DNA of 57,271 nt from Candidatus Micrarchaeota archaeon (GCA_038046805.1 JBBSVO010000006.1:43081-100351); one strand, 5' to 3'. Counted from the stretch's first letter, positions 24,001-27,000 are shown. Numbers are program-made.

Positions 24001-27000
24001 CCTTATCCCAATAGCAAAATCCGCATTTCCATTAGCAGAGAAATAACCAACTGCGCCAGCATAAGGCCCGCGTTTTGTTCCCTCGAGTTTGTCAATAATC
24101 TCAATTGCGCGCACTTTTGGTGCACCAGACACAGTTCCGGCAGGAAATATTGAGCTAAACGCGTCAAAAGAATCCTTTCCGTCCGCCAATCTGCCCGTAA
24201 CTACCGAAGCGATATGCTGAACATCAGAATACTTGTGCACTGACATGAATTCCGGGACTTTCACTGTTCCGGGCACGCTAATCTTTCCAATATCGTTCCG
24301 CGTCAAATCCACGAGCATAAGGTGTTCTGCCCGTTCCTTCTCATCGTTAAGCAGTTCGGTCTCGAGTCTAGTATCTTCTGTTTCGGTTTTGCCGCGTGGT
24401 CTTGTTCCTGCAAGCGTTGCATAGCTGGTTAATTCGCGCCCTTCCACGCGAATTAAGTTCTCCGGGCTTGAACCGATTACCTCGCGTTCACCGAACTTAA
24501 TGTAGAACATATACGGAGATGGGTTTGTTGCCTTCAGCTTCCGATAAAATGGCATCATGCTGCCAGCATATCGTATCTCATAGCGTTTGGATAGAACTGT
24601 TTGGAAAATGTCGCCAGCGCGGATATGTTCTTTAGCTTCCTCAACCATCTTGCAAAATCTCTCCTTAGAAACATTGCATTTCTTGTTGAACATTTCAAAT
24701 CGTTTTGTCTCAAAACTCGAATCGCGGATATATTGCTTTATTTCATTCAGCCTGCCACCATCGTTTCCATAATACAGATATCTTATACTTCCGTTCTTGT
24801 GGTCATAGACTATTGCATCATCAAAAATCCCGAATTCAAAATCAGGAAAACTAATTTCATCTTTCAACTGCGTTCGGAATTCTTCCACGTACCTGATATA
24901 GTCAAACGAGAAATAGCCGACTGCTCCGCCAAGGAATCCAGGCGTATTGAGCGTATTTGTTCCGATTTGTTTTTTTAGTTCAGAAAGCGGATTATTATTT
25001 TTGATTTCGTATTCCGAATTTCCAGTAGTTCCGTCCGTATTTCCTTCTATATTTATTATTCCGTTCTTTAGCCTAATGTGCTTTTTAGGAGAGAATCCAA
25101 GAAAAGAGAATCGCGCGAGCTTTTCCGCGCCTTCGCTGCTTTCAAGAAGAAATGCATTTTCACAATGTTCTGATAGCACTGAAAACATGTCTGTTGGGGA
25201 TATTTGTAGCTCTAGGGTAGTCGAATGCGGAGTCTGGCCAAAGTAAATCCCTTTCCTGTTCCATGTTTTCACCTGTTCGAGTGTAATTGTTTGTAACCCG
25301 TTCTGCGACTTTGTATGTATTTAAACGTTTGTGGATAGAAGTATACATTATTCTCTTTATTTTATTTAATCTGCATGGTACTCTGATGATTTATATTTTG
25401 CAACATGCTCCACGTTCGTATCCCCGCATCCGGAAAGATTTACAATTATCTTGGTCATATAAACCGATTACGTGACAAATATCAACCTCGTTAAAGCATG
25501 CTAACTCCATTTTTTCACAGAAATAATGCGATTTAACGCCATTATCCTGAAGAAAACATTGAAAAAACTGGAGTTGACTGATTTCATAATTTTTTCCAGT
25601 CTCTGTTAGCGATACTTTTAAACATCAATGTACTAAACTATACATATGCTAAACCTCCTCGAAGAATTTTTTGCCCATGCGCGCGGAAGAAAGCAGGTTG
25701 CAACCGAGCTGTTGCGCCGTGGGTTCAAGGTAGACGGAAAAGGAAAGATTTATGCCGGTGCGATAGAGCTTCCGCCAGCCAAAATCGGGCGAGCGATTGG
25801 AGTGGATCGCCGCGTCGTGATCGAAACCGCGCGCGCAATTGCAGCAGATGATAAACTAATTCAAATTTTCTATAGGCTTGAGCCGCGTGCATTCCTTGGA
25901 AATGCGGCAAAAGAGCTCGGATTTGATGTCATAGAAATCCGGGCGGATCCGAAAAAGAAAGGGATTGTTGCGGCAGTAACAAAGGCACTGGCAGACAATA
26001 AGGTGAATATAAGACAGATAATAACCGATGACCCGGATTTGTTTCCTGACCCGGTGCTAACGATCATAATTGACGGCAAACTAGGCGCGGGAGTAATAAA
26101 GAAGCTAAAGGAAATGGATTTCGCGGAGAGCGTGATGATACGGTAGAATAGAATTGCCGGGAACGATTTAAATCCTCACACTTGGTGTGTTAGGTAATGT
26201 ATTTTTAAGCAGAGTATACTAGAATATTAATGATACAAATGAATTTTGCTAAAGCTTTTCCACATGTGCGTGTCGGTTCTGAAGAATACCGTGCAATCAT
26301 AAGCAAATTAAAGGATTATGTACAGCTGGAATTGGGCGGACTTTCTAAACATGGGATTGGTTGGTTGTGCGGTAGGAACTTGGCCACAATGCCGTCAAAC
26401 AATAGAATAGATTTAACTAGAGAAGTGAGGTCGCGCATTGAACAAAACCCTGGTCGTTCAGTTAAAATATTTGAAGTGGGATGTGGAAAAGGGCACACAC
26501 TTAGAACTCTGAAAACTTTGTTTGGGGATAGCGTACATGTAGATGGAATAACTTTGACAAGAAAGGCAGCCGATTATGCGGCTGGAAAATTTGACGCTCC
26601 GGACGTATATGACGTGTTAAGTGAAGTGTTTGTGTTGGTTCCTACTAATGGTCCAAAGATCACAAGGATTGAACCTGTGGATGTAAGAGTTGGGCTTATA
26701 GAAGGTACGGAGTTTCATGACCAAGATATTATCTTTTCTTTTGAAGCACTGAGATATGTATTTGACCAGGCGAGAGCTTTGGAAAAAATTATAAATGGAT
26801 TGGCAAATGAAGGAGTAGCAATTCTCGAAGTCCCAGTAACTTTTCTAGAAGAGAGCCTCAATATACGCGAATATCTTGAAAGCTGTGGCATACACTTTGA
26901 AATGGGAAGAATTAGAGTTAGCGTACTTGGTTTACTTGGAAAAGTAGAACAACAATTTATAATAATCCGGAGAGAATCTGATACAATTGTAGATTTGTCT

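Follow-up and report, generated by a model that had tools for sequence, protein, structure and literature searches.

How is anthranilate synthase made when the only well-signalled start of its gene lies in the wrong reading frame? This question is raised by trpE (anthranilate synthase component I) in a 57,271-nt stretch of DNA from a Candidatus Micrarchaeota archaeon (hereafter the window; coordinates count from its first letter, and features lie on the minus strand unless stated otherwise). A ribosome-binding site GGTGA (25269..25273, or 25273-25269 in reading direction) stands 4 nt 5' of ATG 25264. No other spacing is so common in this genome, where GGTGA-ATG distances run from 4 to 7 nt with a peak at 4-5, and the predicted SD duplex of this site reaches -8.4 kcal/mol. 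For all pairing energies a 16S tail taken from another genome of the family was substituted for that of the window genome, whose 16S and tRNA-Leu are not assembled or were not found (a pattern search for the tail returned chance matches only). The leader opened by this ATG reads ATG GAA CAG GAA AGG GAT TTA CTT TGG and is out of frame with TrpE, as the survey's finding had stated; the peptide given there, MEQERDLLW, is correct, but the ORF does not end after nine codons and runs for 34 (25160..25264), to a TGA at 25162-25160. Within it, AGG GAT and the purines upstream form an internal SD-like stretch (25246..25256) with a predicted duplex of -7.0 kcal/mol, whose pairing to 16S would stop 2 nt 5' of CTT. 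There follow a putative slip site, CTT-T (25240..25243), kept in relatives, at which a Leu tRNA could move from CUU to UUU, and a waiting (A-site) codon, TGG (25238..25240), for Trp. The TrpE frame is +1 relative to the leader and open for 469 codons from TTT 25242 (trpE, 23833..25242; NCBIfam TrpE-arch, 516.6 bits against a cut-off of 512), so that the recoded product would begin MEQERDLL-GQTPHS. The layout pointed out earlier, AGG GAT TTA CTT TGG arranged as in the RF2 frameshift with a Trp codon replacing the stop, is indeed what the sequence contains; the leader has one Trp codon and overlaps trpE, and a separate leader with a run of cognate codons is absent.

We propose that ribosomes initiate at the leader ATG. 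With plentiful Trp-tRNA, UGG would be decoded and the ribosome would terminate at the leader stop, TrpE not being made, while with scarce Trp-tRNA the ribosome would pause, the P-site tRNA would slip to UUU and TrpE would be produced, restoring Trp in a negative feedback. As far as sequence comparison goes, the cassette is a real, conserved element, and it is most likely a +1 frameshift by which the charged tRNA for one amino acid is sensed, programmed into the start of the gene. What we observe is sequence layout, conservation, missing starts, the match between codon and pathway and predicted 16S pairing, and from these we infer that the tRNA slips, that slipping depends on charging and that the SD-like stretch plays a part; the comparative evidence set out below supports the hungry-codon +1 frameshift suggested for this locus before.

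Upstream of the leader, a TATA-like TTTAAATA (25325-25318) and a TGTATA box (25347-25342) occupy 25318..25347 as putative promoter and operator, and a comparable arrangement lies 5' of trpE in relatives. If the TATA-like box is correct, the 5' UTR of trpE would be ~30 nt (it is 8 nt at L270, a Thermococcales locus discussed below). TGTAYA boxes, often paired, stand just upstream of the TATA-like box at trpE in the window (25342-25347) and in L003, L008-L010 and L013-L030. They resemble the TRP box of TrpY, so transcription of trpE may also be controlled. A divergent gene on the plus strand (25646..26146) encodes a regulator with an ACT domain, which is called no more than TrpY-like, its score falling below the family cut-off (NF053754, 160 bits against 180). 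The remaining trp operon (trpG, trpD, trpC, trpB and trpA) follows at 19222..23833, and aroF-aroB genes lie at 14406-16324 (minus), 3 kb past trpA.

In a census of the phylum, TrpE was matched in 51 of 401 sampled genomes and 50 5' ends were read, some belonging to more distant chorismate-binding enzymes. An out-of-frame leader, a slip word and TGG are present at 13 of these 50 trpE-like loci, in five families (L001-L004, L006, L009, L010, L030, L129-L131, L133 and L137), the waiting codon being TGG in 13/13. The cassette is absent from the other 37, which mostly start in frame, in agreement with what had been reported. The 5' end of trpE in L127 (AGG GAT TTG GAT with an in-frame ATG) is perhaps a decayed cassette. 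In L012 (G354 C39) a small HTH gene lies directly 5' of an in-frame trpE; a short ORF upstream of this HTH gene has a Trp codon (ICRWLR), and the usual cassette is absent.

The cassette is found well beyond trpE. Of the order's 176 genomes, 36 were matched by the pattern ATG N0-27 AGGGATKTACTT, as were 33 of 98 in the window's own family, and its reversed control gave 7 matches in 6 of the same 176 genomes. An in-frame ATG was present at 48 of 55 pattern sites against a background of 0.34, and the codons after the slip at these 48 sites were for His (28), Cys (5), Phe, Trp and Pro (4 each), Leu (2) and Glu (1). With that base left unconstrained, the codon after CTT begins with T or C at all but one of the 48, a first base that is required for re-pairing on UUY; the single exception is a GAA inside an SMC gene. 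Altogether 179 pattern sites were collected, 22 were removed by hand as noise and 157 counted, counts in which related genomes are included and kin are not independent. Among the 113 sites of class I (CTT, GTT or TTT slip), which were chosen by pattern, 101 have CTT as the slip codon. P-site codons that re-pair poorly occupy the slip position at trpE in L010 (CGT) and L030 (CAT) and at the second site of L056 (CTC), and GTT and GAA are of this kind too. Mean predicted 16S pairing is -7.4 in class I, -8.2 in class II (GAA slip), -12.8 in Thermococcales and -3.6 in controls, figures that are partly circular because sites were selected by a purine-rich pattern, and pairing is predicted to end 2-4 nt 5' of the P-site codon at most of the 157 sites. 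A class search around G445 resampled the window's own class and gained 4 loci, and none of the claims made here draws on G827, which is marked unpublished. In an SD-filtered scan of the window genome trpE was the one site returned, the His sites being missed, and the pilin-like genes L115 and L116 were discarded as look-alikes in which K-G-I-F-F-T is read in frame.

What the waiting codon encodes follows the pathway of the gene behind it for seven amino acids (Trp, His, Pro, Cys, Tyr, Thr and Ile), which extends the two known from the survey's finding; its His forms at hisG (L040) and hisD (L032, L050, L051 and L113) were recovered. His sites also stand before hisS operons (L064, L073, L316 and contig C3 of the window genome). 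Pro sites precede proB (L055, L067 and L125), proC (L072, L055 and L067) and ornithine cyclodeaminase (L320), and Cys sites precede HTH-cysK-cysE (L074), cysE (L321), CBS-CGL-cysS (L317) and wHTH-SepCysS (L427). A Tyr site heads aspK-asd-ADH synthase in L111, genes of the archaeal aromatic route. Two further Trp sites are known, one ahead of a TrpB2-like gene (L318), the other ahead of a radical SAM-methyltransferase (L114). All 15 codon/gene-family pairs are concordant and the best of 200,000 shuffles reached 12, the pairs having been hand-picked as recognisable pathway genes, with four mismatched and all unassignable sites left out; the pairs include codons that are common, CCA, ACA/ACC and ATC for instance. 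Codon and pathway disagree at the second site of an aro operon (CTC, Leu), before carB (Ser), before a PstS-like gene (Cys) and two genes 5' of valS (Ile), and no pathway link is visible for 8 Phe sites and 4 Cys HTH loci.

Several loci deserve mention in their own right. The 625-aa product of the L114 gene fuses radical SAM and Methyltransf_33 domains, has a stop before the +1 codon and may act on tryptophan. In the window genome (G000 C3:111782-107893 minus, L075), an abrB-like gene with two serial His sites (C3:111697 and 111678) is followed by a radical SAM gene, a 358-codon gene and hisS; the 358-codon gene has its own His site and matches no Pfam or NCBIfam family, and relatives of it recur with His sites in L041, L045 and L073. 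Neither hisD nor hisG was found in this genome by tblastn. A ~355-aa gene with a His site adjoins an Asp/Glu racemase-family gene in L035, L039, L042, L061 and L148/L316, and lies near hisS in L316, possibly in a histidine-related pathway. Two HTH paralogs of the window genome are likewise in the +1 frame, one behind TCA GAT TTA CTT TCC (Ser, lacking AGG) before carB (G000 C4:~101650 minus, L335), the other behind GAA ATC, an Ile site, with a decayed Leu site as well (G000 C3:~91900 minus, L334).

A second class of cassette, GGG TG(G/T) TNN GAA followed by a purine-initial codon, occurs in leaders of a small HTH family found in 76 of 99 family genomes. In the window genome such a site with ACA (G000 C3:~123000 minus, L333) heads an HTH gene with thrS two genes downstream; the codon had been read as Thr before thrS came to light, and a stop lies immediately before the +1 codon, as it does in 8 of 44 GAA-class sites. 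Among nine Thr loci, thrS is next or second in five and no link is visible in four, and two of 15 Ile loci lead directly into a LeuA/CimA-family synthase, presumably the citramalate synthase of the Ile route, the other 13 leading into ORFs that have no visible link.

Sites can also be combined. Two serial slip sites are found in abrB-like genes of L036, L037, L043, L048, L056, L059-L061, L064, L112 and L113, and a single one in those of L045 and L106-L108; in L036, L048 and L061 a stop directly precedes the +1 codon. Elsewhere, Leu, Phe and Ile sites share one frame in some leaders. Where two sites stand in series both slips would be required, and where two share a frame either would do, an AND/OR logic deduced from layout. 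Short unconserved +1 ORFs that end at the next start, with an ATGA or TGAATG overlap, occur in L035, L039, L042, L049 and L321 and in seven Methanoperedens loci, and over 106 sites a stop close to a start is seen 54 times in the +1 frame and 25 times in the zero frame. The cassette would be a portable module whose waiting codon is that for the product of the pathway, Trp, His, Pro, Cys or Tyr after CUU/GUU/UUU and Thr or Ile after the GAA slip word, and whose output would be an enzyme directly, a short +1 ORF translationally coupled to the next gene through its overlapping stop, or a small regulator.

The survey's finding understated the range of the cassette, which reaches into Thermococcales and the phylum of Methanoperedens and takes in another class of slip word as well as tandem and coupling forms. 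An all-GTDB pattern scan returned 76 stretches, with cassettes in Micrarchaeota, two Thermococcus and seven Methanoperedens-type records, the waiting codon being for Cys in all nine of the latter two; bacterial matches and the candidates L164 and L199 were rejected as in-frame coding or chance, so that no bacterial cassette was accepted among the 76, the search pattern being narrow. The Cys form heads a small winged-helix (wHTH) regulator, whose gene a protein search independent of the motif found in 34 of 99 Thermococcales genomes. All 30 fetched Thermococcales loci read ATG AGR RGG GAT NNA (C/G)TT TGY, or a form one codon shorter, and seven of them have a TAG just before the +1 codon. Used as a protein query, the Thermococcales regulator returned 2 proteins, a search that is weak for short proteins and not taken as evidence. 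In the Methanoperedens phylum, a motif-independent protein search matched the wHTH in 115 of 251 genomes, and among the best 30 of these 115 loci 24 of 33 wHTH ORFs, in 23 genomes, carry a Cys cassette of the form ATG (or short leader) AGG RAT CGY YTT TGY. No in-frame start precedes the domain in 23 of these 24, and the remaining nine of the 33 have an in-frame start and lack the cassette. A strict pattern run on 201 genomes of the Methanoperedens order matched 5 genomes and gave no clear cassette, missing real sites because of its last letter and its CTT requirement. As for neighbours of the Cys wHTH, cys genes are absent among 35 in Thermococcales, and SepCysS is one of 14 in the methanogen phylum. 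In a Methanoperedens-type cluster (L156, L167, L176, L191, L195, L204 and L214), an in-frame wHTH gene is followed by a Cys leader with a 41-43-codon coupling ORF and a 49-aa CxxC-CxxC protein, after which comes either another wHTH gene, itself bearing a Cys site (L156 and L191), or an ABC transporter (sulfonate-type in L329, PstS-type in L332).

It is probable, if somewhat less so than the frameshift itself, that archaea possess a general codon-programmed amino-acid sensor, a modular +1 cassette in Micrarchaeota, Thermococcales and methanogens, with slip words matched to codon boxes (CUU/GUU/UUU for U/C-initial codons, GAA for A/G-initial ones), AND/OR gates and coupling ORFs, which would gate a conserved, cysteine-responsive winged-helix regulator and do in function what attenuation and T-boxes do in bacteria. 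The frameshift might instead be real but act as a fixed-ratio dampener or a general sensor of slow growth rather than as a switch for one amino acid. The many Ile, Leu, Phe and Cys cassettes before genes with no pathway link would fit such a role, Trp, His and Cys codons are rare anyway, and the TrpY-like regulator may already govern transcription. This seems quite unlikely in view of the 15 concordant pairs over seven amino acids, common codons included.

Production of TrpE from a weak in-frame start inside the motif (ATT/ATG in GGG ATK TAC), coupled to translation of the overlapping leader, had been named as the rival of the hungry-codon frameshift; the start might equally lie before the motif, at the GTG within GGTGA. 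Before the slip site the sole ATG, GTG or TTG in the TrpE frame is, as had been noticed, GTG 25272 (25270..25272), which lies inside GGTGA and has no SD of its own (duplex -0.3 kcal/mol). ATT 25248 has a duplex of -4.7 kcal/mol immediately upstream, and in-frame ATGs do exist in five of the 13 trpE carriers (L003, L004, L009, L010 and L137), as the survey had recorded for some. Against this, five carriers (L006, L030, L130, L131 and L133) have no ATG, GTG or TTG at all 5' of the slip and in three the SD GTG is the sole one, while the triplet at the place of ATT is unconserved (ATT, ATG, ATC, GTT and GTC) and followed by TAG, ahead of the coding region, at many loci; a ribosome stalled at the waiting codon would moreover be expected to mask such a start, not to free it. 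Where a stop directly precedes the slip codon, an internal start is excluded and the shift is fixed at that codon, which refutes the rival there; at loci that have no such stop an internal start is unlikely, and as an account of the whole it appears quite improbable.

A hairpin might also be involved, in the manner of ermC, if a Trp-stalled ribosome opened a structure hiding ATG 25188 (25186..25188), the first ATG in the TrpE frame, and so released a shorter TrpE. A perfect 10-bp inverted repeat does join the leader start (25262-25271) to the region of this ATG (25180-25189; 25180..25271 overall), but it is shared with a same-genus locus only, the leader folds no better than shuffled sequences (z 0.43) and terminator or antiterminator folds were not found in it. 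ATG 25188 has no SD (duplex -0.2 kcal/mol), and its equivalent is missing in L004, L006 and L009. A start there would leave TrpE without strand 6-9 and without the opening turn of helix 1 in a structure model (pLDDT 88.6), and without L10 and P16, conserved in at least 90% of 25 TrpE sequences, in keeping with the earlier remark that it cuts off a conserved strand; PDB matches, which start near ATG 25188, give no support for this upstream strand as essential. Such unmasking, which leaves the fixed CTT-Y register and the start-less loci unexplained, is very unlikely.

Transcriptional slippage deleting one base of the mRNA would restore the frame and yield an identical product, and the recoding mode can switch between orthologs, according to PMC3711429. 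The T run is only three long, however, slippage gives no reason for the match of codon and pathway, and no indel at 1 in 100 was seen at the slip site of L270, one Thermococcales locus in another genome, in three raw-read runs (depth ~1700, 350 and 320), which makes this explanation highly implausible. These runs, from unknown growth conditions, differ from the locus by 3 nt before the ATG (a strain difference); in them and one contig set, transcripts start at 1465, 8 nt 5' of the out-of-frame ATG. Depth over the leader is 1860, 406 and 370, and over the gene body 77-95, 2-9 and 4-7. A short leader RNA (L270:1465-1526) exceeds the gene body ~20-fold or more, many molecules ending at 1526; the library type being unknown, this pile of reads is not counted as ribosome evidence. 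An assembly error or a decayed gene, conceivable in a genome 86% complete in 16 contigs, is refuted by conservation, since many genomes, from three groups at the level of phyla, share the register and the trpE frame and operon are intact.

How archaea tune the making of amino acids to their supply during translation is still for the most part an open question. If the amino-acid-sensing frameshift is borne out, it would be the first class of cellular +1 frameshifts in archaea, the starts of many archaeal genes would be wrong or missing in annotation, and 15 nt would suffice for a tunable amino-acid sensor. The Cys form makes this directly testable, since Thermococcales and the Methanoperedens phylum have cultured members. 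No such frameshift was found in the literature searched, which held few subscription journals. In the portion of PMC3711429 that was searched, trpE and hisG are not named, and its method is said to miss any shift that falls within 50 nt of a start.

How does the cassette relate to known systems? In bacterial trp and his attenuation and in T-box riboswitches, tRNA charging is read to control genes for amino-acid synthesis or synthetases, with a specificity set by a codon. Unlike these, the cassette has neither a codon run nor a terminator/antiterminator fold, its leader overlaps the gene and its output would be a change of frame. In archaea, the excerpts of PMC6737238 cover trp control as transcription factors only, TrpY and Tar acting on transcription and not on the frame. 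One cellular archaeal frameshift is reported in the consulted sections of PMC8211752, fucA1, a -1 event on a heptamer with no known signal, whereas the shift proposed here is +1. Antizyme, treated in the same sections, is likewise a metabolite-sensing +1 frameshift closing a feedback loop, as the cassette would be, but it is eukaryotic, has a stop codon in the A site, responds to polyamines and does without an SD. Closer still are hungry-codon shifts such as those of yeast Ty1/ABP140 (CUU_AGG_C) and EST3 (CUU_AGU_U), which share a P-site CUU and a slow A-site codon (PMC5009743). They reflect a rare tRNA or, in Gallant's work, starvation error, whereas the codon in the cassette fits the pathway to which its gene belongs; that 2016 review states that no starvation-specific functional product of hungry-codon frameshifting is known, so that this could be its first programmed use as a nutrient sensor.

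Three features favour +1 shifts according to PMC2377451, a slow A-site codon, a slip-prone P-site codon and an SD-like stimulator, and the cassette has all three in the arrangement of prfB, whose SD lies 3 nt 5' of CUUU (PMC10798248). As in prfB (RF2), described in the same paper, the site is near the gene start, the SD-like stretch stands one codon 5' of CUU-U, slippage would compete with decoding of a slow A-site codon and the +1 product would relieve the shortage. The A-site codon, however, is a sense codon (TGG at trpE) in place of UGA, the target is TrpE in place of release factor 2, and what is sensed would be a charged tRNA in place of RF2. The cassette is moreover archaeal, serves many targets, has GUU-U, UUU-U and GAA-A among its slip words and comes in tandem and coupling forms. 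Its mechanics resemble those of the RF2 frameshift, from which they are borrowed, yet it is a member neither of the RF2 family nor of the attenuators, and as a kind of regulation it would be new.
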